Shown: positions 33,850 to 57,072 of the stretch, in pieces
How the letters are laid out: every line of letters begins with the position of its first letter
Numbering within the stretch: the first letter of the stretch is position 1
From: a virus
Lineage: Duplodnaviria; Caudoviricetes
Virus record (IMG/VR): IMGVR_UViG_3300034283_002112
Span: 1-57,072 of that record
Length of the DNA: 57,072 nt
Direction: 5' to 3' (one strand)
Program-made: the position numbers and the translations under genes
Notes under the pieces: generated by a model
What the model saw: only the letters and a program-made list of their open reading frames with translations
What the model was told of the DNA's origin: nothing
Database searches by the model: none

Positions 33850-33885
33850 AAAGGGCCGCAAGGCCCTTTACTTTTCTCTTTTTTT
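33850..33885 (+). terminator. Rho-independent terminator
   Basis: AAAGGGCC-GCAA-GGCCCTTT hairpin (GNRA loop) followed by a T-rich tract, immediately after stop 33846. Confidence 0.85.
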
Positions 33886-33901: not shown

Positions 33902-34210
33902 ATGGATACTGATGCCCTTGTTGCTCATGCACGAGCAAGATTTAATCATGCTGTTGCAAAACGGCTACTAAAAGAAAAATACCTGGCCAAAATGACCTTT
34001 GCTTATCGCGGTGGCATGTGGCGTGCTGGGCCTGAACTGCTGGCCGTGTTACAAACTGTGCCAGTAGAAGATGAAGTGGTTATTGTTGACTTATACGAAA
34101 ACCCTGTCAAAGTTGATCCATTAGAACTACAGCATTTGGCATTTGATCGTTGGCAAGAACAAATGAATGCCTGGCACGTGGAGTTTGAAGAAATGAGCAA
34201 ACGTCGATGA
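33902..34210 (+). CDS. Hypothetical protein, first gene of the enzyme operon
   Basis: 102-aa ORF whose stop overlaps the next ATG (ATGA). Confidence 0.75.
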   Translation: MDTDALVAHARARFNHAVAKRLLKEKYLAKMTFAYRGGMWRAGPELLAVLQTVPVEDEVVIVDLYENPVKVDPLELQHLAFDRWQEQMNAWHVEFEEMSKRR

Positions 34211-35010
34211 CCACCGGCGCACTGATATTTGCATTTAACAATGAACAAACCGACTACCTTGCTATGGCTCGATGGAATGCTCGAAACATTCGTAGGCACC
34301 TTAACATTCCAGTGGCCGTGGTCACAGACCAAACAGGATCTGATATTGTGGAAGGATTTGATCACGTCATTTATGCAGACCCCAAAGCGGGAGGAACCCG
34401 TTATTTCCAGGATTATGATGCCACTGTTACGTGGCATAACGCAGGCCGAGTTGATGCTTATAGTTTGTCCCCCTGGGACCGCACACTAGTATTAGATGCT
34501 GATTATGTTGTGGCCAGTGCTGCACTGCGCAATGTAATCAACACTGATCGTGACTTTATGTGCTATCGTTGGGCCACAGACATGACCACCGGACGGGAGT
34601 TAGCAGCTCTCAACACATTTGGACGCTATCAAATGCCCATGCGTTGGGCCACAGTAATGATGTTCCGTAGATCAAACACAGCACAATACATCTTTGACTG
34701 TATGCAAATGATCCAAGACAACTGGCAACATTATCGTGATTTGTATGCTATAGACAAAAGCACATATCGCAATGATTTTGCATTGAGTATTGCCCTGGGC
34801 ATTGTAAGTGGTCACACCAACCATGTAAGTGATATTCCATGGCCCATGATGAGTGTCATGCCTGAACATACTTTAAAGCAAGTAGACGCCGACAGTTACG
34901 AGATTACATTTGTAGATGCTGACCAAAAGCCTCAAACAGTAGACTGGATTGGTTTTGATTTCCATGCCATGGGCAAACGTCATTTGGAGAATATCATTGC
35001 GTCCCGTTGA
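34207..35010 (+). CDS. Putative GT-A fold glycosyltransferase (GT8/nucleotide-diphospho-sugar transferase-like)
   Basis: ALIFAFN...IPVAVVTD...YSLSPWDRTLVLDADYVV (DxD motif)...RNDFALSIAL. Confidence 0.65.
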   Translation: MTTGALIFAFNNEQTDYLAMARWNARNIRRHLNIPVAVVTDQTGSDIVEGFDHVIYADPKAGGTRYFQDYDATVTWHNAGRVDAYSLSPWDRTLVLDADYVVASAALRNVINTDRDFMCYRWATDMTTGRELAALNTFGRYQMPMRWATVMMFRRSNTAQYIFDCMQMIQDNWQHYRDLYAIDKSTYRNDFALSIALGIVSGHTNHVSDIPWPMMSVMPEHTLKQVDADSYEITFVDADQKPQTVDWIGFDFHAMGKRHLENIIASR

Positions 35011-35761
35011 AGAACAAGGTTACATTATTCCTGCGTTCAATGTAGACAAGATAGACTACGTTGACTGTGCTCGTACATTGGCAAAAACTTTACTGGCACA
35101 GCATCCCAAGGCACGTATTTGTTTGCTAACCAACGAACCCTATGCAGCGGACTATAGTTTGTTTGCCTACACACACGTTGTAGACATCAATCGAGAAAAT
35201 CCCTATGCCAACGACCCTTTGGTATTTGCTCAAACACCATTCCGCGAAACTATCAAGTTAGAAGCAGACATGCTGATTGCCAGTCCGATAGATCACTGGT
35301 GGACCATGTTTAGGCATCGTGATGTGGTGTTGTCTACTGGCTGCCGTAACTGGCGCGACGAAATCAGCACAGCTCGAGACTACCGAACAGTTTTTGATCA
35401 AAACAATTTGCCAGATGTGTACAATGCCATTACCTATTGGCGTCGCAGCGAAATGGCCAAAGAGTTCTTTGACACTGTGCGCAATATATTTGATCATTGG
35501 ACAGAATATCGTCGGCTCATCAAATACTCACCTGATGTACCAGATACAGATTTGGTCTACGCCATGGCTGCACAGGTCATAGGGCTCGAACTGGTTACAA
35601 TTCCGGACTCGCCCTCAATTGTACACATGAAACAAGCACATGCAGGCACAGCCACAAAAGACTGGACACAAGAATTAGTTTGGGAAATGAATCCATTGAG
35701 AATCAATACCATTGCTCAATGGGGTGCGTTTCACTATAATGTCAAAAGGTGGCAACCATGA
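34997..35761 (+). CDS. Putative GT-A fold glycosyltransferase, paralog of 34207
   Basis: GYIIPAFN...DYVDCA...ICLLTNE...TPFRETIKLEADML (ExD at the DxD position)...TDLVYAMAA. The start is set at TTG 34997; the track extends it to 34949. Confidence 0.6.
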   Translation: MRPVEEQGYIIPAFNVDKIDYVDCARTLAKTLLAQHPKARICLLTNEPYAADYSLFAYTHVVDINRENPYANDPLVFAQTPFRETIKLEADMLIASPIDHWWTMFRHRDVVLSTGCRNWRDEISTARDYRTVFDQNNLPDVYNAITYWRRSEMAKEFFDTVRNIFDHWTEYRRLIKYSPDVPDTDLVYAMAAQVIGLELVTIPDSPSIVHMKQAHAGTATKDWTQELVWEMNPLRINTIAQWGAFHYNVKRWQP

Positions 35762-36084
35762 TAACCCCAGATGAATTCTTTGGTGCATTGGAAAGTATGC
35801 CACAACCTCAGTCTGTGTTTTATAGACTGTATTATGAAGGCGAACGTCCACTATTCTACAGCATGGAAGACTTGCCCGGTACATACATTGAAGTTACCCC
35901 TGAACAGCATGCTCGAAGCCAAATGAAAGTGCGTATTCGCGACGGAAAGATAATTCCTATCACTTGGCAAACAGCACAAAAACTCGCACCCAGCAACGCA
36001 GGCACACTGTGCCACGCACAAGATGTTGCTATTGTTGTAAAAGAAAACGGAACCTATTGGAGCAAGAGGACTTATGAAAGTTGA
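35758..36084 (+). CDS. Hypothetical protein
   Basis: ATG 35758 overlaps the previous stop (ATGA); FYRLYY motif; about 108 aa. Confidence 0.65.
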   Translation: MITPDEFFGALESMPQPQSVFYRLYYEGERPLFYSMEDLPGTYIEVTPEQHARSQMKVRIRDGKIIPITWQTAQKLAPSNAGTLCHAQDVAIVVKENGTYWSKRTYES

Positions 36085-36994
36085 TATCGCAGATTTAGAT
36101 TGTATCTACCTAAGCTATGACGAACCACAAAAAGAAGAGTTTTGGATCAAGATTAAGAACATGGTGCCTTGGGCAAAACGGGTGGATGGCGTTAAGGGCA
36201 GCGATGCTGCTCACAAAGCGGCAGCACAGGCCAGTGACAGTGATAGATTCATTCTCATTGATGGTGACAATCTCCCCAACCCGACGTTTTTTAATCAGAC
36301 GCTTGTTCTTCCTAATGAAGAATACAAGAACGCTGTGTTCCGGTGGCGGGCACGTAATCATGTCAATGGACTCATGTACGGCAACGGAGGCCTAAGTTCA
36401 TGGACCCGGGAGTTTGTGATGAACATGCAAACTCACGAAGCCACAGACGGACGAGATGAAACCCAGGTAGAGTTTTGTTTTGATCCCTTGTATTGGCCCA
36501 TGCATGATTGTTATTCCACAACTTACCCTAATGGTGATGCTTTCCATGCGTGGCGTGCAGGTTTTCGAGAAGGCGTTAAGATGTGCCTGCAACGCGGTCG
36601 CAAACCCACAGTAGAAGAATTTAAAAATCAAGTGCTACGAAACTTAGACAATCTCACAATCTGGCACAACGTAGGCACAGATGTAGAATATGGTGAGTGG
36701 GCCATTGCTGGTGCACGTCAAGGCACCTATATGACCATGCTTACTAATTGGGATTATACCTTGGTGCAAAACTTTGATGCCCTGGCTGAACTATGGCTTA
36801 CAGTGAAAGACAGCCAACCAAGATTGCTCAGTAATCGCTTGGCTGAGGATTTGCACACACAATTGGATCTGCCAATGGCCATCCTAGAATGTGAACAAAG
36901 CGCATTTTTTAAACATCACTATCGTTTGAACTGGCACAATCAAGGTGTGATGATTCGAGAAATCGATGTTATTCGCAAAATAGAAGGTTGGTAA
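36074..36994 (+). CDS. Putative GT-A-like glycosyltransferase
   Basis: LDCIYLSYDEP...KRVDGVKGSDAAHKAAA...RFILIDGDN (DxD)...NHVNGLMYGNGGL...AWRAGFREGVKM. Confidence 0.6.
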   Translation: MKVDIADLDCIYLSYDEPQKEEFWIKIKNMVPWAKRVDGVKGSDAAHKAAAQASDSDRFILIDGDNLPNPTFFNQTLVLPNEEYKNAVFRWRARNHVNGLMYGNGGLSSWTREFVMNMQTHEATDGRDETQVEFCFDPLYWPMHDCYSTTYPNGDAFHAWRAGFREGVKMCLQRGRKPTVEEFKNQVLRNLDNLTIWHNVGTDVEYGEWAIAGARQGTYMTMLTNWDYTLVQNFDALAELWLTVKDSQPRLLSNRLAEDLHTQLDLPMAILECEQSAFFKHHYRLNWHNQGVMIREIDVIRKIEGW

Positions 36995-38379
36995 TGAGCA
37001 AAGGCGATCAAAGTCGCTTCATGCGATCAGCTGAGCAAATGAAAACGGATCTCGGTCCTGCACTGTGTCTAGCCAAATGGAAGCAAGTGAGCTTTCACTT
37101 GCCCACTGGTCTCAACAACTCATGTTATCATCCGCCCTTGCACAAGATTACTGAAGCTGATCTTGCTCGTCCTGGCGGCCTGCACAACACTGATCACAAA
37201 AAGGCTCAGCGTGTGATGATGCTGAAAAATGAAAAGCCTACAGAGTGTCAGTACTGTTGGAACATGGAAGCCAACGACAAACTCAGTGACCGCCACTATC
37301 GTTCAGGAGAACCCTGGGCCGCTGTGGACTTTGAACGGATTCGCAACTCAACAGGAACCGAAGATGACGTCATACCCAGCTATGTTGAAGTTAATTTTAA
37401 CAACGCTTGTAACCTTAAGTGCAGTTATTGCTCTCCCCAGTTTAGCTCTAGCTGGGCAGACGAAGCTAACCGTTATGGCGCTTATGCTACTTCCACACCA
37501 CATAATGCTCCTGAACACTTTACAGGGTCTAGACGTGTTATACCCGCTAGGGAACACAATCCCTATGTTGAAGCGTTTTGGGATTGGTGGCCCACGCTGT
37601 ATCCTGAGCTAGAACACTTTCGCATGACCGGCGGCGAGCCCTTGATGGACAAGAATACCTATCGAGTATTTGACTATGTGTTGGATAATCCCAGTCCCAA
37701 GTTGCATCTAAACGTAACATCAAACTTCAGTGTGGAAGATGCACTGTTTGAAAAGTATCTGGGTTATACCAAACAACTATGCACACCCAACATCGAACAC
37801 TTCATGCAGTATGTGAGTCTGGATTCAGGTTCGGGTCCACAAGCCGAATACGTCAGACACGGCATGAGTGCAGAACGTGTGGTACGCAATGTCAATCGTT
37901 TCTTGACAGAAGTGCCCACTCGCAACAGTTTGACCTTTATCATTACCATGAACAATCTGGCAGTGACTGGATTTCAAGACTACATGGAATGGATCCTGCA
38001 ACTTAGACGCATACACAGCACCACCTATCAGCGTGTGTGGTTTGATACACCTGTGCTGCGAGAACCAGCTTGGCAGAGCTTGCAACTGCTGCCTGAAAGT
38101 TATGCAGTACAGCTAGAAAAGTCACGTGACTTCATGCTGGCCAACATGACCACAGAAGACAATCCCTTACACGGATTCAAAGACTACGAAGTGCAACGTC
38201 TGGAACGTGACATTGCCTGGATGCGCTCGGGGCAAAAGCAAGATCACAGTCAGGCCAAAGCAGACTTCTATCGTTTCTTTAGTGAACACGATCGTCGCAG
38301 AGGCACAGACTTTAAGAAAACGTTTCCCGAAATGGCCACCTGGTGGCACGAATGTGAATACTATGCTAGGAACACATAA
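36994..38379 (+). CDS. Radical SAM protein with N-terminal twitch domain (no. 1)
   Basis: CNLKCSYC and TGGEP motifs; N-terminal CLAKW...SCYHP...CQYCW. ATG 36994 overlaps the previous TAA. Confidence 0.9.
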   Translation: MSKGDQSRFMRSAEQMKTDLGPALCLAKWKQVSFHLPTGLNNSCYHPPLHKITEADLARPGGLHNTDHKKAQRVMMLKNEKPTECQYCWNMEANDKLSDRHYRSGEPWAAVDFERIRNSTGTEDDVIPSYVEVNFNNACNLKCSYCSPQFSSSWADEANRYGAYATSTPHNAPEHFTGSRRVIPAREHNPYVEAFWDWWPTLYPELEHFRMTGGEPLMDKNTYRVFDYVLDNPSPKLHLNVTSNFSVEDALFEKYLGYTKQLCTPNIEHFMQYVSLDSGSGPQAEYVRHGMSAERVVRNVNRFLTEVPTRNSLTFIITMNNLAVTGFQDYMEWILQLRRIHSTTYQRVWFDTPVLREPAWQSLQLLPESYAVQLEKSRDFMLANMTTEDNPLHGFKDYEVQRLERDIAWMRSGQKQDHSQAKADFYRFFSEHDRRRGTDFKKTFPEMATWWHECEYYARNT

Positions 38380-39478
38380 ACTCGTTGTAGATGAATGGGC
38401 TGAAACCTGGGACCTACTGAAGCTGTATGCTGACAGCAGTTTTTGGCGCTGGTCAGATGTGGACTTTGATCCTGCATGTCGATACATTGTGGGACGAACT
38501 GTGCTCAAAGACAACTGGGCTAGTATCACTGCTCTGGCCACACAATGGCCTGGCCGCATTGTGTTTTCAAACCCTGCTGAGGGATCGGAAACAATAAAAT
38601 TACAGTTACAGCGGCTACGTATCACAGACTATGTGAGTGACGGGCGTATAGGACTGCTGACATCTGGCGACTTAGAACCTGGCATCAACTACTGCAAGAC
38701 TGATTGTTATTTCACAAACATTGTGGAATACACAGAAAACAAAGCAGCACAGTTACAAGCGGCTCTAGACTATAAGTCACACAGGCCCTATGAATTTCTT
38801 TTTTTAAATGGCCGACTGCGCCCGCATCGCAAGTATCTAATAGATCATATGAGAGTACAGGGCCTGCTGACTCATGCACTGTGGACCAATCTCAGCAGTC
38901 GTGTGGAAATGGCGTTTACTTCTCGGTTAGACACAGGCAAAACAGAACGCATTAGACTGCTGCCCCCAGAATACGAAATAGAACGTGCTAGGGAAAGATT
39001 AACTCCTGATCTTTACACTGACAGCGGATTCATCAAACACAAGCTGTTCAACAACACCTGGGGCGATGCCATTGTAAATCCACGCTGCTACACAGATACC
39101 TGGTTCAGTCTAGTGACAGAAACCATTTATGATTACCCGCATACTTTTAGAACAGAAAAGATCTGGAAACCCATTTTAATGGCACACCCATTTGTGGTAG
39201 CTGCCAATCGGGGCTACTTGCGAGACTTACGCAACGCAGGATTTAAAACGTTTGGTACACTGATAGACGAAGGGTATGATCAAATTGATTGCCCAAGCAC
39301 ACGAATAGAGTGTATAATAGATACAGTGTGTGGCATAAGCGAATCGGGCGCTGCTGAATTCTGGGAAGCCTCACGCGACATTTGTAAATACAATCAGCAA
39401 CGTCTCGTAGAGTACAACCGTGAACAACGTGCTCTATTGCCACAACATCTACTAACTTATCTCAATGAACGATCTTGA
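38363..39478 (+). CDS. Glycosyltransferase-like protein of the LVTET...TEK family (GT10-like motif)
   Basis: FLFLNGRLRPHR...FSLVTET...RTEKIWKPILMAHPF...LRNAGFKTF...IDEGYD. The start is set at ATG 38363. Confidence 0.55.
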   Translation: MLGTHKLVVDEWAETWDLLKLYADSSFWRWSDVDFDPACRYIVGRTVLKDNWASITALATQWPGRIVFSNPAEGSETIKLQLQRLRITDYVSDGRIGLLTSGDLEPGINYCKTDCYFTNIVEYTENKAAQLQAALDYKSHRPYEFLFLNGRLRPHRKYLIDHMRVQGLLTHALWTNLSSRVEMAFTSRLDTGKTERIRLLPPEYEIERARERLTPDLYTDSGFIKHKLFNNTWGDAIVNPRCYTDTWFSLVTETIYDYPHTFRTEKIWKPILMAHPFVVAANRGYLRDLRNAGFKTFGTLIDEGYDQIDCPSTRIECIIDTVCGISESGAAEFWEASRDICKYNQQRLVEYNREQRALLPQHLLTYLNERS

Positions 39479-40796
39479 ATTTCGCCAGCAAGTGCTGGAC
39501 ACAATCAGTCCCAGTTTTTGTGGCGCAAAGTGGTTTAATGCTACCATTTGGCTTGGTAGCGGCATGAGCACCAGCTGCCACCATCCGCCAGCTCATTTGG
39601 TGGACATTGATAAAGTCACTACCAACCCTAAGCTGCTGCACAATACACCGCAAAAGAAAGACGACCGTGCACGAATGATTGCAGGTGAACGTCCTGCAGG
39701 CTGTGAATACTGCTGGAAGATAGAAGACATGGGTCGTGACGCTGTGAGCGATCGTGTTTACAAAAGCAAAATATATCCCATAGAGGCCTTGCATGAAGCT
39801 AGAAATACACCCGCAGATCGGGACGTTAACCTCCGTACTCTGGAAATTGCTTTCGATCGTACTTGCCAGTTTGCTTGTAGTTATTGCAATCCTGCTTTTA
39901 GTAGCACATGGGTTAAAGATATTAGGAATAACGGACCCTACAGCAGTCTTGTTAGTGACGGTCGTAATCACTTTACACACGAGCACTCAAGCGCTCAACT
40001 GTATCGTTTCGGGGAGACCAATCCGTATGTTGAAGCGTTTTTTGCATGGTGGGAGTCGGATCTACATCTTACACTACAGGAGCTCAGAATCACCGGAGGG
40101 GAGCCCCTCATGTCCGGACACACCTGGAAGCTGATTGACTGGTTCCGCAACAATCCAGGACGCAGCCGCACACGCCTAGCCATTAACTCAAACCTAGGTG
40201 CTGATGTAGACGTAGATCGTTTACTAGATTCAATACAGGGACTAGATGTAGATATCTATACCAGCCAGGAAGCTGTGGGTACTCAAGCTGAATACATACG
40301 TGATGGCCTGGACTATGCCGCCTGGCAAGCCAACGTAGAAAAGATCTTGACCAGCGGTCGTGTACGCACCTTGCACTTTATGGGCACAATCTCAGCACTG
40401 TGCTTGCCTAGCTTGACTGATCATTTGCGTTATCTACTAAAATTAAAGCAACGCCACGGACGTGACGCAGTAAGTTACACACTGAACATCTTGAGATTCC
40501 CCAGCTTTCAAAGTGCCTTGGTCATGCCACATAGCCTACGTGCCCGCTTTGTTGCAGAACTAAAAGAACTGCACTACCGCAATCAGCACAATCCTTTGTT
40601 TCATGAGCATGAGCTGGATCATGTACAAAGACTGATTGACTATTTGGACGTGGTCGAAACTCCTCATTCGGAAGCATTTGACATGCCTCGCTTGCTAAAC
40701 GACTTTTGTGAGTTTTTCTCACAGTATGACCAACGCCGGGACAAAGATTTTGCCACAACGTTTCCTAAATTAAAAGAATGGTACCAATCACTATGA
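39465..40796 (+). CDS. Radical SAM protein with N-terminal twitch domain (no. 2)
   Basis: CQFACSYC and TGGEP; N-terminal CGAKW...SCHHP...CEYCW. Confidence 0.9.
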   Translation: MNDLEFRQQVLDTISPSFCGAKWFNATIWLGSGMSTSCHHPPAHLVDIDKVTTNPKLLHNTPQKKDDRARMIAGERPAGCEYCWKIEDMGRDAVSDRVYKSKIYPIEALHEARNTPADRDVNLRTLEIAFDRTCQFACSYCNPAFSSTWVKDIRNNGPYSSLVSDGRNHFTHEHSSAQLYRFGETNPYVEAFFAWWESDLHLTLQELRITGGEPLMSGHTWKLIDWFRNNPGRSRTRLAINSNLGADVDVDRLLDSIQGLDVDIYTSQEAVGTQAEYIRDGLDYAAWQANVEKILTSGRVRTLHFMGTISALCLPSLTDHLRYLLKLKQRHGRDAVSYTLNILRFPSFQSALVMPHSLRARFVAELKELHYRNQHNPLFHEHELDHVQRLIDYLDVVETPHSEAFDMPRLLNDFCEFFSQYDQRRDKDFATTFPKLKEWYQSL

Positions 40797-42490: not shown

Positions 42491-43125
42491 GTTTGAATTT
42501 TGACAGTTTTTTTGGTGCACCTACTTCCTATGTGCCGGGACCGTATTTTTTAGCTGCGGGTTGTAGTCATACTTCAGCGGTGGGAGTGGACGCTGATCAA
42601 TGCTGGGCAGGCCAACTGGCTCAACGCACTCGAATCAAGACTTGTAATCTAGCCGAAGCCGGGGGCAATGCCTGGATTGCCAGTGTACGTATAGCACAGT
42701 GGATCCTGGTCACCGGTCGTCCAGAGTTTGTTGTAGCACAATGGCCTCACCCCATACGCACAGTGATATGGAAAAATGGCCAAGGTAATTCTGTTAACGT
42801 ACACGACACTGAAGATCATTTATTTCACACTCGCTTGCGCTACGGCGACTCTAATTACTGGGCTGAGTGGATGCAGGCAATAATTACTACAAATGCCATT
42901 TGCGTCGCGGCCAAAATTCCCATTATAAATTGGAGTCTTGACAACGTTGATCCGCACTATCTTGCACTGTTAAAGGCCAATGGCATTGTTGTGCATGATC
43001 AAACAGATCAACCACGCTGGGAAATAGACCGGCTAGGCTCAGATCAACGACATGCCGGACCCTTGTCACATGCGCAATGGGCACAACAATTACAGGAAAT
43101 GTTAAATGCAATTACCACACGATAA
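42487..43125 (+). CDS. SGNH/GDSL-hydrolase-like protein
   Basis: Block I-like AAGCSHT, block II-like NLAEAGG, and block V-like DQRHAG (DxxH). Confidence 0.6.
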   Translation: MSLNFDSFFGAPTSYVPGPYFLAAGCSHTSAVGVDADQCWAGQLAQRTRIKTCNLAEAGGNAWIASVRIAQWILVTGRPEFVVAQWPHPIRTVIWKNGQGNSVNVHDTEDHLFHTRLRYGDSNYWAEWMQAIITTNAICVAAKIPIINWSLDNVDPHYLALLKANGIVVHDQTDQPRWEIDRLGSDQRHAGPLSHAQWAQQLQEMLNAITTR

Positions 43126-46629: not shown

Positions 46630-46727
46630 AATGGATTAAACGTATTTGGGATCGTATTCAAATGGAAATTCGCTATCGTAAAAAGCTAAAAGAACTGCGC
46701 AAACGAGACCCGTTTATCTACAAATGA
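46626..46727 (+). CDS. 33-aa basic peptide ending RDPFIYK (carbamoyltransferase-associated, SxtK-like motif)
   Basis: MKWIKRIWDRIQMEIRYRKKLKELRKRDPFIYK*. It has ATGA overlaps at both ends (46626-29 and 46724-27) and fills the gap exactly. Not in the ORF track. Confidence 0.8.
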   Translation: MKWIKRIWDRIQMEIRYRKKLKELRKRDPFIYK

Positions 46728-49473: not shown

Positions 49474-50472
49474 ACTGGCGTTGAACTGTATGCGATCTGC
49501 GTAGAGCACATGACTCGTACGCAGATTTTCTATTGCCGCCGAGTGTTTAGAATGTGCAGGGTTGACAACGTCTTGTACAGCAAAGTTAGACCATGTGCCC
49601 CAATCTTCGAGTCTGTTGACTACCCCGTCAAACCCAAAGTCAACACACAGCTTGCAGAAGTTTTGCACGTCATGATGGTTGGCTTGTTGAAATACAAACT
49701 TCAACAGCACTTCTGACTTGGTACGTTGTTGTACCAACTTCAGCCACTCTAAGTTACGCATCAGCACATCCCAGCGTCCAGGTCTGCGTACATTGTGATA
49801 CACTTCTGTAGAGCCTGCGTCTATGCTGATAAAGTATTGTGTAATGTTGTCTAGTATAGGACTGTTGCTTAATTGCTTTTCCATCAGCAAACCATTGGTA
49901 AACAGTCGTATGGTTTGTTGCGGAGTAGGCTGGAACTCACGGATCAGCGGACGCATAATAGAGCTTGCTAGTGGATCGCCGTTGCCCGACATAACAATGT
50001 GACACGGCTCTTCAAACTGCTCCAGCAATCTGCGCATGTGTTGCACCTGTGCTAGCTTGCGTTCATAGTCTGGGCCTTGTGAAACCATGATAGCATCGCT
50101 GCGGCAACTAGGGCAAGCTAGATTGCAACTTTCGTCTATGTTGATGCTGACAACATAGCGAGTATCAAATAAGTCTTGGTTTCTAACACCACAACGATCT
50201 ACAGCACAGTGTGTGAAACGGCCATCTACAATGTCTTGTTGTAAGGCTTGTGCTGTAGGATGTGCCCATACATCCGCTAGGCGATCAAAATCAGTGATCT
50301 GACCAGGACTAACAGGCAACCATGCCTCACAGCCGCATACAAAACAATCCCCTTTCCAGTCTACTACCAATTGACGACTAGGTGCATTGCAGCGGTAGTC
50401 TATGGTGTAGCCCAGTTGCGCATTGCGCGGGATTGAATTGTAGGCATGCTGATTGGCAATCGGGATGATCAT
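49444..50472 (-). CDS. Radical SAM protein with N-terminal Cys cluster (no. 7)
   Basis: CNLACPSC; GNGDP in place of GGEP; N-terminal CNAP...CFVCGC...HCAVDRC. Confidence 0.85.
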   Translation of the reverse strand: MIIPIANQHAYNSIPRNAQLGYTIDYRCNAPSRQLVVDWKGDCFVCGCEAWLPVSPGQITDFDRLADVWAHPTAQALQQDIVDGRFTHCAVDRCGVRNQDLFDTRYVVSINIDESCNLACPSCRSDAIMVSQGPDYERKLAQVQHMRRLLEQFEEPCHIVMSGNGDPLASSIMRPLIREFQPTPQQTIRLFTNGLLMEKQLSNSPILDNITQYFISIDAGSTEVYHNVRRPGRWDVLMRNLEWLKLVQQRTKSEVLLKFVFQQANHHDVQNFCKLCVDFGFDGVVNRLEDWGTWSNFAVQDVVNPAHSKHSAAIENLRTSHVLYADRIQFNASLVELCKPRK

Positions 50473-51488
50473 AGATATGACTCTAGACTACCACGACGAC
50501 GTAGATCCTGGGTACAGCAGCTGATGCCGCCGTCCCAGAAGTAGCTGTGACGCAACTCACTTATAATCGGATTGATCCGATGCTTCTTACAATAATCAAA
50601 CACCTGCTTGTTATAAGCACTGAAGATTACGTTCTCTTCGTCCAACACAAGACAGTTAACGTCAAAAACTGTCTCTGCTACGAATCCAGTCCATTTGTTT
50701 AGATAAGTGTCCACAAAGTCTGTGAACTCAGGCGTAGGGGTTTGTCCTTGCACGTACCAAGCACCAGGGTTAGATTCGTACTTGAACTTGCCAACTTCCA
50801 TGGCGGCCCAGATACTTGGGTCCCAAATCTTGCACACATCCCAACCAGGGAAATCACGTGCTAGATCCAAGTTAACATCGTGCTTGGAACTCAACAGCAC
50901 ACCAGGCTTGAGAATAGCAAACACAGCATCGCCGTGTCCGTCTGTGATGGCTTCGTGAATACGATATTCAGGACCCAGTACGTTATCCACTATCCAACGG
51001 GTTTGTTCGGGCTTTAAGAAGTCTGAGTTGTCAAAGAATACATCGCGGCCCACACGCACAATACAGCTGGCACTTGCACCATTTAGAATGCAGTCTTTGT
51101 CCCACTCGCTCTTGTGTGGGTTGATTATTTGATCTTTGTACTCAGCACAGATGGTATCTAACTCTTTCATGTTGAGCACACGCAACAGTTTGTTGCCCAG
51201 TGTGATTTGCCAATCTCTCGGAGTCAGTGGTGGCAGCGGAGCACCACCACCTTCAGTTTGAAACCATACAAACTCGTCCTTGGGTCGAACATCGGGTCTG
51301 CGTACTCGGGCACCGTATTGCTCAATGGTCCGTTGTAGGTTGTCAAGATCCTCTTCTGTTTCATGCAAGATCTGTTGCATTTGATTGCGAACTTGAGGAT
51401 TGTCAATGAAGTCAAAGTAATCTGCTGGGTAGGCACTGCCCACAATAACTTCTTCTAAAGGTTGCCAAGATGTGTAACTGTTGATCAT
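50469..51488 (-). CDS. Amidinotransferase (glycine / inosamine-phosphate amidinotransferase family)
   Basis: INSYTSWQPLEEVIVG N-terminus, PRD, GHGD and C-terminal GGISCCTQDLRR are pentein-fold motifs with the catalytic His and Cys. The start is set at ATG 51488 (ATGA overlap). Confidence 0.85.
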   Translation of the reverse strand: MINSYTSWQPLEEVIVGSAYPADYFDFIDNPQVRNQMQQILHETEEDLDNLQRTIEQYGARVRRPDVRPKDEFVWFQTEGGGAPLPPLTPRDWQITLGNKLLRVLNMKELDTICAEYKDQIINPHKSEWDKDCILNGASASCIVRVGRDVFFDNSDFLKPEQTRWIVDNVLGPEYRIHEAITDGHGDAVFAILKPGVLLSSKHDVNLDLARDFPGWDVCKIWDPSIWAAMEVGKFKYESNPGAWYVQGQTPTPEFTDFVDTYLNKWTGFVAETVFDVNCLVLDEENVIFSAYNKQVFDYCKKHRINPIISELRHSYFWDGGISCCTQDLRRRGSLESYL

Positions 51489-52654
51489 ATGTTTAATTGT
51501 GCGAATAAAGTATTTAGGCGTTGAGTCTTGCTGGCGGCAAATAAACGCTGGTTGTGTACAATATCGTTCCAGCAACTGGCATACCAGGCTTGCATGTCTT
51601 GCGACTGTATTTGCTGTATAGCACGTCGAGCAGCTTGCCAACGTTGTGTGTTGTTGGGTATGACATCGTAGAAATTGTCTATGGCATGATCAAACGTTCT
51701 ATAACCCAGGTTGCGCAGAGTGCTTAAACTTCCCTGTGGTCCTATGATCACAAACGGATGTCCGTTTTTCAGTGCTTTGAATGTTTTTTCAGTAAGGAAT
51801 GTGCCGCCGCTGCCGTCTGCGTCAAAGTGTGTTTCTAGTATGATGCTGCAATAGCTGCTGACATAATGTTGCGATACTGTAAGGCTGTGGTCATTGTGCT
51901 GGTCCGCAGTCAAGTCATCACAGACCTTAGGTCTGTGGCTCATAAACTTCCCAACATCCACTCCTGGTTGATGTTCTATAGGGTTGTCTTGGGGATCATC
52001 ACCTAGCGGCAGTTCTGTATTGTAGCTCCACAAGCTGTGATCCAACACACCTATTTGCTGTAGTTCTGCCATTGCACTGGCACGCCACCATTTGTGTGTG
52101 CGACTCAATGCCAAGAACTCATGTTGCCTTGCTGTTTGATGTTGTATTACTAGTCCTTGGCTACGGTTTCTACGCCAGTACAGCAATTCATGGTCGGGAA
52201 AATACACAAAGCCAGGAACGCCATGTGCTGCGGTATTGCCTGAAACAAAGCGATAGCAATTGCTAGACAAGCAATGGCGGTCGCACAGTTTGTCCAGTCG
52301 GTATTTGATGGTATGTGGATTATCGCCTTCATGATAGTAGAACACGATAGTAACTGTGCCTTGACGCACATCATGCATGATGTTGTTGTCGATCAAGGCA
52401 AAGTAATCTATAGTGAAATCAAAGAATCCCAGTCCTATCACATACATGCCTCTGCCTTTGGTCACTAGTTCATATTCAACACCGTGGTCATCCATGTGCC
52501 CAAACAATTCAGCGGGAGTAGTATGAGGCCAATGTTGACCAAATTCTCTCCAGGCCTGAGTGTAAGGTCTTGCTTGGTGTTGGGCCAATGCTGGGTAAGG
52601 TCTGCCCTTGATTGTGCGGTCAACCCTGAATTTCAATGCTGTTAAGCATGTCAT
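51485..52654 (-). CDS. Glycosyltransferase-like protein of the LVTET...TEK family
   Basis: FLALSRTHKWWR...SIILETHF...FLTEKTFKALKNGHPF...LRNLGYRTF...YD. The start codon is uncertain. Confidence 0.55.
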   Translation of the reverse strand: MTCLTALKFRVDRTIKGRPYPALAQHQARPYTQAWREFGQHWPHTTPAELFGHMDDHGVEYELVTKGRGMYVIGLGFFDFTIDYFALIDNNIMHDVRQGTVTIVFYYHEGDNPHTIKYRLDKLCDRHCLSSNCYRFVSGNTAAHGVPGFVYFPDHELLYWRRNRSQGLVIQHQTARQHEFLALSRTHKWWRASAMAELQQIGVLDHSLWSYNTELPLGDDPQDNPIEHQPGVDVGKFMSHRPKVCDDLTADQHNDHSLTVSQHYVSSYCSIILETHFDADGSGGTFLTEKTFKALKNGHPFVIIGPQGSLSTLRNLGYRTFDHAIDNFYDVIPNNTQRWQAARRAIQQIQSQDMQAWYASCWNDIVHNQRLFAASKTQRLNTLFAQLNI

Positions 52655-53759
52655 TTAGTTCGTCCCAAAGTATCTTTTCAAATGCACCGCCGTAGAAATG
52701 ATTATAATTGTGTTCTACGATTTCTCTGGCTTGGTGATGTAAATCTTGGCGTTGTTGTATGGTCATGCTGTCTAGAGATTTCAAAACGGTAGCAATTTTT
52801 TCTATCCTGATTTGATCATTGGACTCGTTGTCATAGCTTTCGTCCCAGAGCTTGCTGAAAGTTTTGAATCCATATCTTTGTAGATAAGCAAGGCTGCCTT
52901 TTGTGCCAACAATCACAAAAGGCATTTGTAGACAAATGGGTTTGAAAGTTTTTTCAGTGATATGTAAACGTTGGCCTGAAGCAACAGTTTCTGTCACAAG
53001 ATACAACAGACTGTCTGCTGATTGATCAAACAAGCTGAGCCAGCATGAGTGCATGGGAAAACCAGTTTCTCCAGCAAACTCAATTGGTAAATCAACTTGA
53101 TTGAACACATCCTCAATATCAGGGTACGCAGTTTTTAGCGGCTGGGCTGCATCACCAATAGAGATACCTTCAGCAGGACACACCGCAGGGCAACTAATAT
53201 GATTGTCAGTCATACCTAGTTTAAAAATCCAGTACAGCATTTCTAGTCTATGATGTCTCATGCCTGCTACAATGCGATTTGGTGCAATAAATGTCTTGGT
53301 CGGCGTTCTATCTTTGGGATCAGCTATTAAAAACGTTTTGTCGTATCCTCTATACCAATCTAGTGCTGCCCATCCGTGAAAGAAATAGTATAGAGGTTTC
53401 CATCCGTAAAATTGACACATATGATCTACAGACTCACTTTCGAACTCACTGGTAATTAGATATCCAGTTTTGGTCAACCTTCTGTTTTTATTGGTCGGAA
53501 TACCATCTTCATCGAAATTTAGATCAGCGTTTGATTGATCCACATGCGCAAATGTTTGCATGTGTATGTTCAAATGTATTGGCTCTTGGTCAAATAAGAA
53601 TATATAATTGTGTTCGTGCACTTCGTCACTGCCATAGTTAGCTACGCTGTCAGGATCGCTTCGCCCAAACGGATCGCAGAAAAACACCCTAAAGCCAGGA
53701 CGATTTTTTTGTATCCAAGGCCAGAAGGTATTGTTGTAAATTTCGTCTATTCTAATCAT
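52620..53759 (-). CDS. Glycosyltransferase-like protein of the LVTET...TEK family
   Basis: FIAPNRIVAGMRHHR...YLVTETV...HITEKTFKPICLQMPF...LQRYGFKTFSKLWDESYD. Confidence 0.6.
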   Translation of the reverse strand: MIRIDEIYNNTFWPWIQKNRPGFRVFFCDPFGRSDPDSVANYGSDEVHEHNYIFLFDQEPIHLNIHMQTFAHVDQSNADLNFDEDGIPTNKNRRLTKTGYLITSEFESESVDHMCQFYGWKPLYYFFHGWAALDWYRGYDKTFLIADPKDRTPTKTFIAPNRIVAGMRHHRLEMLYWIFKLGMTDNHISCPAVCPAEGISIGDAAQPLKTAYPDIEDVFNQVDLPIEFAGETGFPMHSCWLSLFDQSADSLLYLVTETVASGQRLHITEKTFKPICLQMPFVIVGTKGSLAYLQRYGFKTFSKLWDESYDNESNDQIRIEKIATVLKSLDSMTIQQRQDLHHQAREIVEHNYNHFYGGAFEKILWDELNDMLNSIEIQG

Positions 53760-56700
53760 GTTTGATATTTTTTATTCAGGGAAGAAACCCAATTTGTTTG
53801 CTCATGAGCAGCAGGCAGATAGTATTGAGCATGCACAAAGTTTGAGTCGTACAAGATTCTTTTGGTGGGTGTCATACTTATGTGACTACACAGACTGGGA
53901 CTGGCTTTATGAGCCGCCGCCTTGGCAAGCTGACCAGAATCATGTGTGGCCTAGTCAATGGCATCAGTATTCGGGCACATATCTCGCACCCAAGACGCCA
54001 ACAGACCAGTGGAACTTCCATGAACAAGAAATAATAACAAAACATGTGCAAGAAAACTGGCGTGTGTTGTATCCTATCAATCATGCACAGTTTGATTTTT
54101 CATGGCACCCGCATCCCTTAGATCCACCGTACATTTACATATGGGGCAATCAACACTGGCCAGGGGAAAAAATGCCCACAGTAGAATATCGTGTTGAAGG
54201 TGCTACTGAACGCAAGTACATGGACTGGCCAGCCTCATTGTTGCCAACCGCTACTAACTGGACAACTCCTGCAGAGATTGATCCTGCCAGTGTTGATTAT
54301 TCATGGCGACCAGACCCACAAGATCCGCCGTACATCTACGAGTTTGCCACACAATGGCAGCCAAACGGTGGTGCTGTGTACACAGTGCCTGGTGCTACAG
54401 AACGCAAGTATATGGGCATTCAGCATCGCAGACTCAGTGATCCTGTTAACTGGACTGTTCCTGATCTAGTAGATGTCAACAGTGTAGACACATCATGGCA
54501 TCCAAGCAACACAGAACAGCCTTACATCTACGAGTTTGCCACACAATGGCAACCCAATGGTGGTGCTGTGTACACGGTGCCTGGTGCTACAGAACACAAG
54601 TATGTGGGCATTCAGCATCGCAGACTGCCCAATAAAGCTGCCTGGAAATTTTTAAACGCCATTGCTAGTTTTGATTACTCGTGGCATCCTGACAACACTG
54701 AGCCAGCCTACAACTATGTGTTTGGTAATCAACATTGGCCGGCTACAGAAATGCCCACTATTGTTTACGAAATGCCAGACGCTGTATCAGACAAGTTTGT
54801 GGATGTACTAGTTGCACGCCTGTGGGGTTGCATGGGCAACTGGGAGTTGTGCGAAGACATTGATGATGCTGCCTGGGATTGGTCATGGGTGCCTAATCCC
54901 AATGATCCTCCTTATAACTATGTGTGGGGCAATCAATGGAATTCTCCTGAGCTCAAAGCCAGCTTGCGGTATCATGTCAAGGGTGCAACAGAATTCAAAT
55001 ACATGGATCAGCGCACATGCAGACTACCACAACCGGAATTGTTTACAAATCATTTGTCTGTGGCTGAGTTTGACTACAGCTGGGAACCTGATCCCACAGA
55101 TCCGCCAATGACTTATGTGTTTGGCAACCAGTGGAACACAGGCGTGCTCGAACCCACAGTGACTTATACCACAGGTGGAACAGAAACCAAGTATGTAGAC
55201 AACATTGTTGCCAAGATTGCGCCAGACAAAACTAAATGGGAATTATTAGATGACATTGAAGAATTTGATTACAGTTGGAGGCCTGATCCTACTGATCCTC
55301 CTTATATCTATGTGTTTGGTAACCAGTGGCTTGCTCCTGAACAGCGACCTGCTGTCCAATATCATGTACCTGCCGCTGATGAAATAAAATACATGAATTA
55401 TCCTCGTGCAAAACGCCGAGGAGATCCTGAACGTTTTGAACAATTATATCCTTGCGAGTTTGATTGGTCATGGGAACCTGAACCAGGGAGCCCTCCTTAC
55501 ATTTATGTGTTTGGCAATCAATACTACTCAGCAGAAGTCATGCCCACATTGACACTGACTGTGCCTGGTGCAACAGAACGCAAGTACATGGACATAGCCG
55601 CAAAATTGCTGCCGCGACATGACAATCATTGGCACACGTTGGTAGACTGTGAATGGGATTATACCTGGAGGCCAGAACCAGGCAGCCCGCCTTACATCTA
55701 TGTGTTTGGCAACCAATGGTGGTCAGCTGAAAAGATGCCCACGGTAGAGTATCACATGCCTGGTGCAACAGAACGCAAGTACATGGATATCAATGCAGAG
55801 TTGTTGGTAGACATGACATATTGGCACATTCCTGAATATGTAGACGTCACGGACATGAACTTCAGTTGGGTTCCTGATCCTGGCGAACCCTCTTACATCT
55901 ATCAGTTTGCCACACAACATCAAAAGACAGGTGGCCCACAATATCGCATGCCCGGAGCAACAGAGTTTAAGTATGTGGACATGATGCGAGCAGAAGTTAA
56001 ACGAGAGGCCGCACCCATATTTGAAATTGACCACCTGGACGGTGCTGCAGGACAGATTCCTGACACAGTCAAGAAGGTGCGTTATTTTGACAACTATCGC
56101 GACACACTGATCCGACTGGCCAAGAGTCTAGTAGGTGAATATGAACATGTATGGGTATGCTCAAGTATCTGTGACTACACTGGCTTTGACTTTTCGTGGC
56201 ATCCAGAAACTTGGCAAAGCACAATGTTGCATGTATTCCCCAGCAATGATCAAAAATTTGGAGACACATTCTACATGCATGTGCCTACCTTTGCAGAACG
56301 TGCAGAAAAGAAACAGTTGTTGGAATGGTATTCAGTAAACTATGTGTCACGTCGAAGTGTGCCCCGCAGACCTATGCCTGTGATTGAACACACCAATGAC
56401 ACACATGTTGACACAGTAAAAACCGCAGACTGGGCTGGACCCTTGGCACTATTCTCTACAAATGGTGTGCCCATCACCTTGCCCACTGTTCCACTTTGGC
56501 GCCAAGAACTCAAGACTATTGTGCCGCTGAGTGCAGGTGCCAGTGTTGTAATTGTGCCTCGAGTTGCTCGAGGCGATATCAAGACACAGATGTATGACTA
56601 TCCACACATTGATAAGACACAGAAAAAACGTCATGGCGATAAATCACTGGACATTGTGTTTATTAGCAACGGAGAATACAGCGCCGAACAGAACTACGAT

Positions 56701-57072
56701 CATTTGCTAGACAGCACCTATAATAGAAACAATTGTGTTCGTAGAATTGATGGCGTTAATGGTCGCGTGGCAGCGTATCATGCCGCTGCCCGAGCATCAA
56801 CTACACCTTGGTTCTTTGCAGTATTTGCTAAACTACATGTTAACATGAACTTTGATTGGACCTGGCAACCTGACCGCATGCAGCAGCCCAAACACTACAT
56901 CTTCCATGCAGAAAATCCAGTGAATGGATTGGTATATGGTCACCAGGCTATGATTGCCTACAACCGAGACTTGGTGCTGTCTAACACAGGGCACGGGTTA
57001 GATTTTACATTGGATTCGGCGCACGAAGTAGTTCCTTTGCACTCAGGTATCGCATATTATGCTGACACACCG
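53758..57072 (+). CDS. Large Trp/Tyr/Pro-rich repeat protein with a C-terminal GT-A-like domain (runs off the window edge)
   Basis: Absent from the ORF track because it has no stop in the window. Manual translation from ATG 53758 (MFDIFYSGKKP...) is open for 1105 codons. The C-terminal LDIVFISNGE...RRIDGVNGRVAAYHAAA...NPVNGLVYGH aligns with ORF 36074. Confidence 0.9.
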   Translation, partial: MFDIFYSGKKPNLFAHEQQADSIEHAQSLSRTRFFWWVSYLCDYTDWDWLYEPPPWQADQNHVWPSQWHQYSGTYLAPKTPTDQWNFHEQEIITKHVQENWRVLYPINHAQFDFSWHPHPLDPPYIYIWGNQHWPGEKMPTVEYRVEGATERKYMDWPASLLPTATNWTTPAEIDPASVDYSWRPDPQDPPYIYEFATQWQPNGGAVYTVPGATERKYMGIQHRRLSDPVNWTVPDLVDVNSVDTSWHPSNTEQPYIYEFATQWQPNGGAVYTVPGATEHKYVGIQHRRLPNKAAWKFLNAIASFDYSWHPDNTEPAYNYVFGNQHWPATEMPTIVYEMPDAVSDKFVDVLVARLWGCMGNWELCEDIDDAAWDWSWVPNPNDPPYNYVWGNQWNSPELKASLRYHVKGATEFKYMDQRTCRLPQPELFTNHLSVAEFDYSWEPDPTDPPMTYVFGNQWNTGVLEPTVTYTTGGTETKYVDNIVAKIAPDKTKWELLDDIEEFDYSWRPDPTDPPYIYVFGNQWLAPEQRPAVQYHVPAADEIKYMNYPRAKRRGDPERFEQLYPCEFDWSWEPEPGSPPYIYVFGNQYYSAEVMPTLTLTVPGATERKYMDIAAKLLPRHDNHWHTLVDCEWDYTWRPEPGSPPYIYVFGNQWWSAEKMPTVEYHMPGATERKYMDINAELLVDMTYWHIPEYVDVTDMNFSWVPDPGEPSYIYQFATQHQKTGGPQYRMPGATEFKYVDMMRAEVKREAAPIFEIDHLDGAAGQIPDTVKKVRYFDNYRDTLIRLAKSLVGEYEHVWVCSSICDYTGFDFSWHPETWQSTMLHVFPSNDQKFGDTFYMHVPTFAERAEKKQLLEWYSVNYVSRRSVPRRPMPVIEHTNDTHVDTVKTADWAGPLALFSTNGVPITLPTVPLWRQELKTIVPLSAGASVVIVPRVARGDIKTQMYDYPHIDKTQKKRHGDKSLDIVFISNGEYSAEQNYDHLLDSTYNRNNCVRRIDGVNGRVAAYHAAARASTTPWFFAVFAKLHVNMNFDWTWQPDRMQQPKHYIFHAENPVNGLVYGHQAMIAYNRDLVLSNTGHGLDFTLDSAHEVVPLHSGIAYYADTP
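54058..55990 (+). repeat. Ten tandem ~62-68-aa repeats (W...FDYSWxPDPxDPPYIYVFGNQW...GATERKYMD)
   Basis: (S/T)WxP cores at about 54100, 54301, 54493, 54679, 54883, 55078, 55273, 55468, 55663 and 55864. Units 2 and 3 are near-identical in DNA, with a 192-nt period. Confidence 0.9.

Follow-up and report, generated by a model that had tools for sequence, protein, structure and literature searches.

What does a large phage build with seven radical S-adenosylmethionine (SAM) proteins, up to six glycosyltransferase-like proteins, a carbamoyltransferase and an amidinotransferase, all encoded side by side next to its tail genes? The question is raised by a single virus contig, IMG/VR record IMGVR_UViG_3300034283_002112, of which the whole stretch of 57,072 bases was analysed and is referred to as the window; the phage's own genome is represented by this 57-kilobase (kb) fragment. 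The genes in question, g01 to g20 and a gene for a 33-residue peptide, occupy positions 33902-57072 and are denoted here as the module (Table 1). The module probably encodes a soluble, cytoplasmic line that assembles and tailors a glycan; that this line works together with an acceptor protein of the phage itself is the more tentative part of the proposal, falling slightly short of an even chance.

The module consists of 20 open reading frames (ORFs) of 102 to more than 1105 residues and one of 33 residues, 21 genes in all. With start codons placed at the point where homologs begin aligning, every junction overlaps by 2-47 nucleotides (nt), leaving no non-coding base in the interval, so that the gene packing described in the first-pass annotation of this DNA was confirmed; ATGA-type overlaps of 4 nt are found at five junctions. 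A strand switch absent from that annotation runs through the block: g01-g15 together with the peptide ORF (16 genes) and g20 lie on the plus strand, and g16-g19 (49444-53759) on the minus strand. Genes g19 and g20 are divergent, with start codons that overlap in the tetranucleotide CATG (53757-53760) and no room for an intergenic promoter. In relatives, about 100-300 nt separate the matches to g19 and g20, and the g20 start of the window may sit further downstream.

Six of the genes (g06, g08, g09, g11, g12 and g15) belong to one family, scoring 228-407 bits against the NCBIfam model NF033640 ('twitch domain-containing radical SAM protein', N_Twi_rSAM), the cut-off of which is 170 bits. Seven twitch-type proteins had been counted in the first-pass annotation; six are members of the family, while g16, at 33.8 bits, is a different radical SAM protein. 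In an alignment of 28 family sequences the CX3CX2C motif (C290, C294, C297) and a GGE motif (G352, G353, E354) are invariant, as are four cysteines upstream of CX3CX2C, and in g09, g11, g12 and g16 SPASM comes ahead of Radical_SAM in the order of Pfam matches. The NF033640 genes are accordingly predicted to encode an auxiliary-cluster (twitch/SPASM-like) cysteine domain N-terminal to the core; the twitch region of the family profile aligns to the auxiliary-cluster domain at the C-terminus of BtrN (E=1.6e-3). The paralogs are only 21-31% identical to each other, yet each has orthologs at 60-93% identity in relatives, indicating that the six copies are old and separately maintained. The N-terminal extension of g09 (window 40778-41290) is present in some relatives and missing in many, in which the match begins at residue 145. 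The mycofactocin maturase model, which has a cut-off of 265 bits, is matched weakly by g11 (25 bits). A tblastn search with g08 in 50,697 phage records found a homolog in Ralstonia phage RsoM2USA alone, at 50% identity.

Bacterial NF033640 genes, found in Bacteroidota, Bacteriovoracaceae, Elusimicrobia and others, stand alone or form arrays of as many as about five paralogs. On contigs L181, L183, L188, L196, L214, L234 and L236, from bacterial metagenome-assembled genomes (MAGs), three to five NF033640 paralogs are adjacent, mirroring the phage array; these contigs are labelled Elusimicrobia, Oligoflexia and Halobacteriovoraceae, with two unclassified. Among 120 ORFs beside bacterial members at 43 loci, the most frequent families included Radical_SAM (7), PhyH (5), GT1, GT2, UbiA and GDSL (4 each), numbers that were obtained without a background control. 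A literature search found no paper on NF033640 or on an N-terminal-twitch or N-terminal-SPASM radical SAM family.

The glycosyltransferase-like proteins fall into two groups. The AlphaFold2 model of g07 is of high quality (predicted local distance difference test score, pLDDT, 91.2; predicted template modelling score, pTM, 0.89), and its Foldseek matches are all glycosyltransferases, the best being SenB (E=4.3e-4). All 50 of the 50 rows listed by the structure comparison tool VIA are likewise glycosyltransferases (Z 10.9-12.7, 258-288 of 371 residues aligned), and on the strength of this model g07 is assigned a predicted GT-B fold. The top rows are tied: T4 beta-glucosyltransferase has Z 12.7, Helicobacter pylori FucT Z 12.5, and others are similar, with a glycosyltransferase of chlorovirus NY2A at Z 11.5. 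Since the enzymes in these tied rows act on DNA, sugars, lipids or proteins, the fold is uninformative about the acceptor. The E..EK region allows a comparison with GT10 alpha-1,3-fucosyltransferases such as FucT, which is tied with the T4 enzyme; at the sequence level the g07 family has no Pfam match, and the best row of its PDB profile search (E=0.054) is to unrelated capsid proteins. Residues E253, E265 and K266 are invariant across the joint alignment of g07, g18 and g19, and the latter two are taken as GT-B proteins by paralogy to g07 only. The three 'TEK-motif' glycosyltransferase-like proteins of the first-pass annotation thus correspond to one modelled GT-B fold and two paralogs found by BLASTP.

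The second group comprises the three proteins that had been called GT-A-like, an assignment that is weak for all of them; a DxD-like motif is present in g02 and a DxD motif in g05. The g02/g03 family retrieves glycogenin as its best PDB profile match (E=0.005, itself weak), with glycogenin in 19 of 20 rows and NleB in the remaining one; no consistent Pfam match was obtained from 20 homologs, even at E<=1. For g05, which carries the DxD motif IDGDN, at least 8000 metagenomic homolog clusters exist; one Atlas cluster is auto-named 'Glycosyltransferase 2-like', and among 120 listed only 'hypothetical protein' names and no Pfam domain were seen. PDB profiles gave nothing usable for g05 (one row, E=0.22), and hhalign detected no relation to g02/g03. 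The C-terminal domain of the repeat protein g20 is homologous to g05 (28% identity over 118 residues, E=7e-5), with IDGDN replaced by VFAKL, which fits the earlier description of g20 as a repeat protein with a degenerate glycosyltransferase domain. Full-length g20 homologs in relatives measure 821-1650 residues; tblastn of g20 against the 50,697 phage records returned no match.

Two further enzymes are assigned with more certainty, and in both cases the first reading was right. Both Pfam domains of NodU/TobZ-type carbamoyltransferases are recognized in g14 above their gathering scores, Carbam_trans_N (Kae1-like) at 122.5 bits (cut-off 24, E=3.5e-35) and Carbam_trans_C (YrdC-like) at 161.7 bits (cut-off 27, E=1.6e-47), and His110, His111 and His114 are invariant in 16 homologs. 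Against the NodU equivalog model NF041651 the protein reaches 135 bits where 1000 are needed, which makes it a member of the superfamily and no NodU ortholog; its family, phrog_1601, is the one found in cyanophages. The PDB profile matches of g17 are amidinotransferases in seven of seven cases (AGAT, StrB1, HsvA, SxtG; E 3.3e-19 to 4.5e-14), with AGAT at 3.3e-19, StrB1 (1bwd) at 9.6e-15 and SxtG at 4.5e-14, although no Pfam match is found at E<=0.01. The segment GGISCCTQD of g17 aligns to GGGFHCWTCD of AGAT and GHGDAVF to PHIDATF, placing a cysteine near the C-terminus and a histidine motif that we take to be catalytic.

The remaining proteins are less clear. In g10, nine homologs share S27 (in GCSHT), G60 (in GGN) and D186-x-x-H189 without exception, a pattern consistent with the SGNH protein proposed earlier; its only PDB match is to a GDSL protein at E=0.91, there is no Pfam match, and the assignment is a weak one. 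For g13, nothing was matched by a PDB profile search, or by Foldseek against the PDB at E<=0.001; VIA lists many cyclophilins, but their Z of 7-8 is the tool's usual noise level, and no fold claim is drawn from them. Ten matches to g13 in BFVD are uncharacterised phage proteins only, and an Atlas search gave 0.81-0.82, the chance level. Neither g01 nor g04 matches a Pfam or PHROG family. Across the 20 module proteins of at least 102 residues there is no transmembrane-like segment (top 19-residue hydropathy 1.81), and no flippase, polymerase or polyprenyl-phosphate transferase.

Is this a fixed assembly or an accidental collection? A search with g14 in IMG/VR yielded at least 599 matching stretches, the best 80 of which are 64-87% identical, and a search with g09 yielded 127 relatives; many matches are on contigs of 320-374 kb. 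Gene order from g01 to g20 is kept in relatives. Co-occurrence was counted in the 48 g09-anchored loci with both 10-kb flanks. The first-pass annotation had proposed gene co-occurrence across relatives as a check, and seven members (g06, g08, g11, g12, g13, g14 and the peptide) were each present at all 48 loci. They are followed by g05 (46), g07 (45), g02, g03 and g18 (42 each), g19 (41), g17 (36) and g01 (35), with g20 at 26, a count limited by flank length; the variable members are g15 (9), g16 (6) and g10 (5). Anchoring on g14 instead gave 49 full loci, of which 49 contain the peptide, 44 g20, 43 any GT-B paralog and 40 any N-twitch radical SAM gene. In three relatives, at 30-87% identity, the same order is found of baseplate wedge gene, giant-protein gene, u12, u13 and module. 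The block is therefore a conserved module rather than a variable island; the term 'island' used earlier is misleading, since the block is syntenic across relatives and its G+C content is that of the rest of the window, which is even at 0.41-0.48.

The relatives poor in radical SAM genes are informative about context. Thirteen g14 loci have no more than one N-twitch radical SAM gene; they keep the peptide and g14, and mostly g20 and a GT-B gene. Their 91 otherwise unexplained neighbour ORFs include B12-binding (10), Radical_SAM (10), DegT/DnrJ/EryC1 aminotransferase (6) and UDPG_MGDP_dh (4) families, three each of epimerase/dehydratase, GDP_Man_Dehyd (GDP-mannose 4,6-dehydratase), MannoseP_isomer and DUF6071, and two each of RmlD, cytidylyltransferase, FkbM methyltransferase and GNAT. 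Judged by these families, the neighbours appear to be enzymes of nucleotide-sugar synthesis and tailoring. That the same core of peptide, carbamoyltransferase, repeat protein and GT-B protein is found among nucleotide-sugar genes supports the glycan line.

Among cultured phages, RsoM2USA is the sole record of the 50,697 with part of the module; a megablast search with 12 kb of the module against the same records gave no match. Its mini-module (L001 15984-21560) comprises three DUF6071 genes, a g08-like radical SAM gene (50%) and a g14-like carbamoyltransferase gene (45%). The RsoM2USA paper contains no mention of 'carbamoyl', 'radical', 'ORF199' or 'ORF202'. Contigs L164-L171, on which the module lies whole or as far as a shorter contig allows, at 45-77% identity, are filed in bacterial MAGs (Haliscomenobacter, Legionellales, Betaproteobacteria TMED41, Rickettsiales, Porticoccaceae, Flavobacterium and Polynucleobacter); they are probably phage contigs binned with bacteria, and at best a weak lead to a host. 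On L248 (3363-6837; genome G001), a second, inverted pair of g20-like and g19-like genes lies downstream of the module. The available text on a 'moraphage' (PMC12619734) describes a different lineage and was rejected as a match.

In the line that we propose, up to six glycosyltransferase-like proteins (three GT-B, two GT8-like and one with a DxD motif) would build an oligosaccharide from nucleotide sugars of the host. The six N-twitch radical SAM proteins and the seventh radical SAM protein would each contribute one radical sugar-tailoring step, such as oxidation, epimerisation, dehydration or C-C/C-methyl chemistry. A hydroxyl group would be O-carbamoylated by g14 via carbamoyl-AMP, g17 would transfer an amidino group from arginine to an amino sugar, and the optional SGNH-like protein g10 would add or remove an acyl group. 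As acceptor we favour a protein that the phage itself produces in the same cell, which could be a fibre, the giant baseplate-associated protein encoded just upstream, or g20 and the 33-residue peptide. What the data show are the protein families, the predicted g07 fold, co-occurrence and synteny of the genes, and the nucleotide-sugar genes around the core in relatives; from them we infer every substrate, the order of the steps and the acceptor.

A protein acceptor is suggested by the position of the module after the baseplate and fibre genes, by the lack of membrane or lipid-carrier enzymes in it, and by the lack of known DNA-modification entry enzymes in the closest relatives. Since neither DNA entry enzymes nor a membrane or lipid-carrier component was found and the tail-adjacent position is fixed, a cytoplasmic protein or peptide is the most economical acceptor. 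The first-pass annotation had proposed a glycan line decorating virion or tail proteins; the glycan line is supported by the GT-B fold, the nucleotide-sugar neighbours and the co-occurrence, while the evidence for a virion or tail target is circumstantial.

Several observations weigh against this proposal. The module of the window contains no sugar-nucleotide genes, and the neighbour-family counts, for the 91 phage ORFs as for the 120 bacterial ones, lack a background control. The GT-A assignments of g02/g03 and g05 are weak, and the tied top rows of g07 include a DNA enzyme, the T4 beta-glucosyltransferase. The nearest solved structures to the radical SAM proteins in profile searches are remote (best E=3.3e-8; viperin, BlsE, MoaA and BtrN weaker), we know of no characterised NF033640 member and none with a known substrate, and SPASM/twitch enzymes often act on peptides, a conserved example of which is encoded inside the block. 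The mini-module of RsoM2USA adjoins DNA ligase and helicase genes, not tail genes, and the search for TET-type enzymes described below had no positive control. Finally, a terminator-like hairpin occupies the sole gap near the module (55 nt, between u14 and g01); with it placed before g01 the module may be its own transcription unit, apart from the fibre and virion genes.

The conserved peptide raises the first alternative, which is that the product is primed by or derived from a peptide: the 33-residue peptide would be a precursor or scaffold, the radical SAM proteins would modify its Tyr/Phe-containing C-terminus, and glycosyl-, carbamoyl- and amidinotransferases would then decorate it. Pyrroloquinoline quinone (PQQ) and mycofactocin derive from small peptides via SPASM radical SAM enzymes, and mycofactocin is then glycosylated. 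The peptide itself is real and strongly constrained. Its ORF shares an ATGA overlap with each neighbour, its start codon lying on the stop codon of g13 and its own stop on the start of g14, and it is found at 114 of 114 loci with both g13 and g14, and at 31 of 34 loci with g14 and no g13 match. Ten residues are invariant, including Y17, D28, P29, I31 and Y32, and residues 14-33 are nearly invariant across loci whose enzymes are 40-90% identical, so that the peptide is more conserved than the module enzymes. Variation affects third positions in 31 of 33 codons, as against 15-19 for first and second positions, a bias that indicates constraint on a protein. The C-terminal D-P-F-I-Y-K resembles the core D-P-P-Y-I-Y of the g20 repeats, and g20 contains seven copies of the pattern P[FY][IVN]Y, which is missing from the 33 other window proteins scanned (17,725 residues, 0.63 expected), although this match is short and was noticed post hoc. 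Peptide and g20 are thus candidate substrates of the same enzymes. The first-pass annotation had seen the peptide as a partner of the carbamoyltransferase; it is real, conserved and does track g14, and its conservation and the motif shared with g20 make it in addition a candidate acceptor or precursor.

Further evidence bears on this alternative in both directions. The g13 gene, joined to the peptide gene by ATGA, gives the cyclophilin-like rows mentioned above, at the noise level of the tool. The unassigned module proteins match no Pfam family at E<=0.01, and hence no PqqD/RRE-type or peptidase family, in a search that did not extend to remote RRE folds. The distribution of the peptide follows that of g14 and g20, not that of the radical SAM genes: nine of the 49 g14-anchored loci with the peptide are without an N-twitch radical SAM gene, and bacterial N-twitch arrays are without the peptide, tblastn matches to it being confined to the phage-like contigs L164-L168. 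Six glycosyltransferase-like genes also exceed the needs of known peptide-derived products. On balance a peptide-derived product is possible but unlikely. We are equally doubtful of its extended form, in which the product is built on ribosomal peptide with D-P-F-I-Y-K of the peptide and the D-P-P-Y-I-Y cores of g20 as recognition sites for the N-twitch radical SAM proteins and the glycosyltransferases, and the free peptide is possibly a primer, a cofactor or a released effector. If true, the virus would make a new class of glycopeptide or glycoprotein, Tyr-linked or cross-linked and bearing carbamoyl and amidino groups.

A quite unlikely alternative is that the enzymes alter the surface polysaccharide of the host (O-antigen or capsule) during infection, for example to block superinfection. 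Decoration of capsular polysaccharide, or a secondary metabolite, has been proposed for clusters of carbamoyl transferase and sugar-enzyme genes in cyanophages, in the available text of Iyer et al. 2021 (PMC7824862). Nucleotide-sugar genes around the core in relatives are compatible with such a role, as are the glycosyltransferase and GDSL genes near the bacterial radical SAM homologs. The 20 larger module proteins, however, offer none of the membrane or lipid-carrier functions named above, and a fixed core beside tail genes in diverged relatives differs from the cyanophage clusters, which the same text describes as sporadic and polymorphic.

The remaining alternative is DNA hypermodification, in which a modified base would receive groups from the glycosyltransferases and the carbamoyltransferase, as in 5-carbamoyloxymethylcytosine or glycosylated 5-hydroxymethylcytosine (5hmC). 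According to the available text of the papers concerned, 5hmC in DNA is the substrate of a NodU/TobZ-type carbamoyltransferase from a phage (Yang et al. 2021, PMC8670742) and phage GT-A and GT-B enzymes place diverse glycans on DNA (bioRxiv 10.1101/2023.12.21.572611); the T4 beta-glucosyltransferase row of g07 and the DNA-metabolism genes around the RsoM2USA mini-module point the same way, and a ThyA gene lies near the module in G001 (L163) and G002 (L162), about 3 kb past g20 in the latter. Both texts place the genes of such pathways beside one for a thymidylate-synthase-like hydroxymethylase, or beside those for a C5-methyltransferase and a TET enzyme; where contigs are unmodified, the carbamoyltransferase has group 1 glycosyltransferases at its flanks (PMC8670742). 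In five relatives searched for these enzymes, four of them 99-100% complete and one 97%, one with direct terminal repeats, C5-methyltransferase (PF00145) and TGT/DpdA (PF01702) were found in none, nor was Tet_JBP (PF12851) in a search that lacked a positive control; ThyA-like proteins (PF00303) were found in two of the five and in none of the three closest, and the G002 copy, the one translated, carries the canonical dUMP-type Asn motif. Modification of DNA is accordingly very unlikely.

Glycan-related enzyme sets have been described elsewhere in phages and bacteria, and the comparison helps to define what is new here. PQQ and mycofactocin clusters also place a small conserved peptide, with Tyr near its C-terminus, within a SPASM/twitch radical SAM and glycosyltransferase cluster; the phage module has six paralogous maturase-like enzymes rather than one, and its peptide tracks the carbamoyltransferase. 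The aminoglycoside and aminocyclitol enzymes BtrN, TobZ and StrB1 belong to the same enzyme classes; g14 shares the two-domain TobZ/NodU architecture, and g17 matches StrB1. BtrN has its twitch domain at the C-terminus, as opposed to the N-terminus in the phage proteins, and the similarity between them is marginal; moreover, the module is without inositol or 2-deoxystreptamine pathway genes, and its carrier is a phage, not an actinomycete.

Chlorovirus glycosyltransferases encoded near structural genes decorate virion proteins in the cytoplasm. To our knowledge, virion glycosylation systems have one or few glycosyltransferases and no radical SAM, carbamoyl or amidino chemistry. Glycosylation of virion proteins in the cytoplasm, by virus glycosyltransferases whose genes lie near structural ones, is described for mycobacteriophages too (Freeman et al. 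2023, as cited in the available text of PMC12619734); unlike in these systems, the phage module is known here from genes alone and its glycan is a prediction. The clusters of jumbo cyanophages (Iyer et al. 2021, Viruses 13:63, PMC7824862) are alike in being large-phage clusters of paralogous glycosyltransferases, sugar-modifying enzymes and NodU-like carbamoyl transferases, and both are computational predictions. As far as the text of that paper is available, they differ in having a halogenase, 2-oxoglutarate-dependent oxygenases, cupins, HAD phosphatases and methylases of their own, and the words 'Radical SAM' and 'amidinotransferase' do not appear in it (supplementary gene lists not covered). 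Phage DNA hypermodification (PMC8670742; bioRxiv 10.1101/2023.12.21.572611) shares with the module the carbamoyltransferase superfamily, phage GT-A and GT-B enzymes and clusters on IMG/VR contigs, but the hydroxymethylase, or the C5-methyltransferase with TET, was not found in the closest module relatives; 'Radical SAM' and 'amidinotransferase' are absent from the text of the bioRxiv paper, and 'radical SAM' from that of PMC8670742, in the parts available. A literature search for a module combining jumbo phage, radical SAM and carbamoyltransferase or glycosyltransferase found no description, in line with the initial remark that no characterised phage pathway has this composition. Prediction of glycan clusters in phages is thus already known; the combination of chemistries in the module is not previously described.

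The neighbourhood places the module in a lineage. Upstream of it are genes for a T4-type late sigma factor, virion proteins, a baseplate hub and a baseplate wedge, by PHROG matches. The wedge protein matches 97 records and is 34% identical, over 92-99% of its length, to proteins of Salmonella, Escherichia and Klebsiella jumbo phages (310-373 kb) and of Sinorhizobium phage Phosso (469 kb), phages which we take to belong to the Rak2/PBECO4 group. The 4860-residue protein encoded next has counterparts of 31-61% identity in three relatives; it may be a giant protein of the baseplate or a fibre, and a glycan could be attached to it. Three fibre-like or uncharacterised genes follow, and then the module. 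The same phage DNA is present in 20 lake-water or metagenome sequencing runs, 13 of them unflagged as a possible source and 7 flagged as such, and no RNA run is among those listed as holding it. The carrier of the module is an abundant lake-water clade related to Rak2/PBECO4-type jumbo phages, and the phage of the window is taken to be a jumbo myophage. The window contains no tRNA genes. There is a single copy of the T4 late-promoter consensus (TATAAATA) in the window (1.3 expected), and it lies away from the module; between 37100 and 57072, sigma-70-like sites (29 against 35.1) and terminator-like sites (11 against 17.7) are fewer than in shuffled sequences.

Table 1. Genes of the module and neighbouring features, with positions in the window.
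Feature	Position	Strand	Description	Basis or remark
4860-residue ORF	15748-30330	+	Lies directly after the baseplate wedge gene	FG-GAP repeat match
Hairpin	33850..33885	+	Terminator-like, GGGCC-GCAA-GGCCC and T-run, between fibre-like u14 and g01	Read from sequence
g01	33902..34210	+	102 residues, no assigned function	No Pfam/PHROG family; 35/48 g09-anchored loci
g02	34207..35010	+	267 residues, possible GT-A (GT8-like), DxD-like LDADY	g03 paralog; glycogenin profile match E=0.005; no Pfam match
g03	34964..35761	+	About 265 residues, g02 paralog	phrog_1903 (unknown function), E=1.1e-12
g04	35749..36084	+	111 residues, no assigned function	No Pfam/PHROG family; 41/48 loci
g05	36074..36994	+	306 residues, DxD (IDGDN), putative GT-A-like	Homologous to g20 C-terminal domain
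g06	36988..38379	+	N-terminal-twitch radical SAM	NF033640, 308 bits
g07	38363..39478	+	Predicted GT-B-fold glycosyltransferase-like, invariant E..EK	AlphaFold2 model, structural matches
g08	39465..40796	+	N-terminal-twitch radical SAM	NF033640, 286 bits
g09	40778..42490	+	N-terminal-twitch radical SAM, extra N-terminal extension of about 170 residues	NF033640, 407 bits over residues 172-568
g10	42487..43125	+	212 residues, SGNH-like (weak), variable member	Invariant S27, G60, D186, H189; 5/48 loci
g11	43106..44323	+	N-terminal-twitch radical SAM	NF033640, 339 bits
g12	44304..45608	+	N-terminal-twitch radical SAM	NF033640, 277 bits
g13	45595..46629	+	344 residues, phage-specific, no assigned function; possible cyclophilin-like barrel with helical insert	AlphaFold2 pLDDT 81.6
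Peptide gene	46626..46727	+	33-residue basic peptide, invariant C-terminal D-P-F-I-Y	Conserved ORF, third-codon-position variation
g14	46724..48211	+	NodU/TobZ-type ATP-dependent carbamoyltransferase	Pfam Carbam_trans_N and _C; phrog_1601, E=5.8e-95
g15	48202..49473	+	N-terminal-twitch radical SAM, variable member	NF033640, 228 bits; 9/48 loci
g16	49444..50472	-	Different radical SAM, N-terminal SPASM-like Cys domain, variable member	Pfam Radical_SAM 35.7 bits, SPASM 22.1 bits; 6/48 loci
g17	50469..51488	-	Amidinotransferase (AGAT/StrB1/SxtG superfamily)	PDB profile matches
g18	51485..52654	-	Putative GT-B, paralog of g07	BLASTP to g07 E=1.3e-12; joint alignment with g07 family
g19	52620..53759	-	Putative GT-B, paralog of g07	BLASTP to g07 E=4.5e-12, to g18 E=7.7e-10
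g20	53758..57072	+	Repeat protein, about 13 repeats of about 65 residues and g05-like domain without DxD	Cut by window end

The module therefore represents a new combination, in which six radical SAM paralogs, carbamoyl and amidino transfer and six glycosyltransferase-like proteins are joined by a glycosyltransferase-like repeat protein without DxD and a 33-residue peptide. It is also a common one, as judged by the at least 599 carbamoyltransferase stretches in IMG/VR, the at least 8000 clusters of g05 homologs and the recurrence of the same phage DNA in 13 further lake-water runs. Working out what the module does would assign a function to NF033640, including the paralog arrays of bacteria, and might uncover a novel glycan, on virion, peptide or surface, with a bearing on the host range of abundant freshwater phages or on their evasion of defences.

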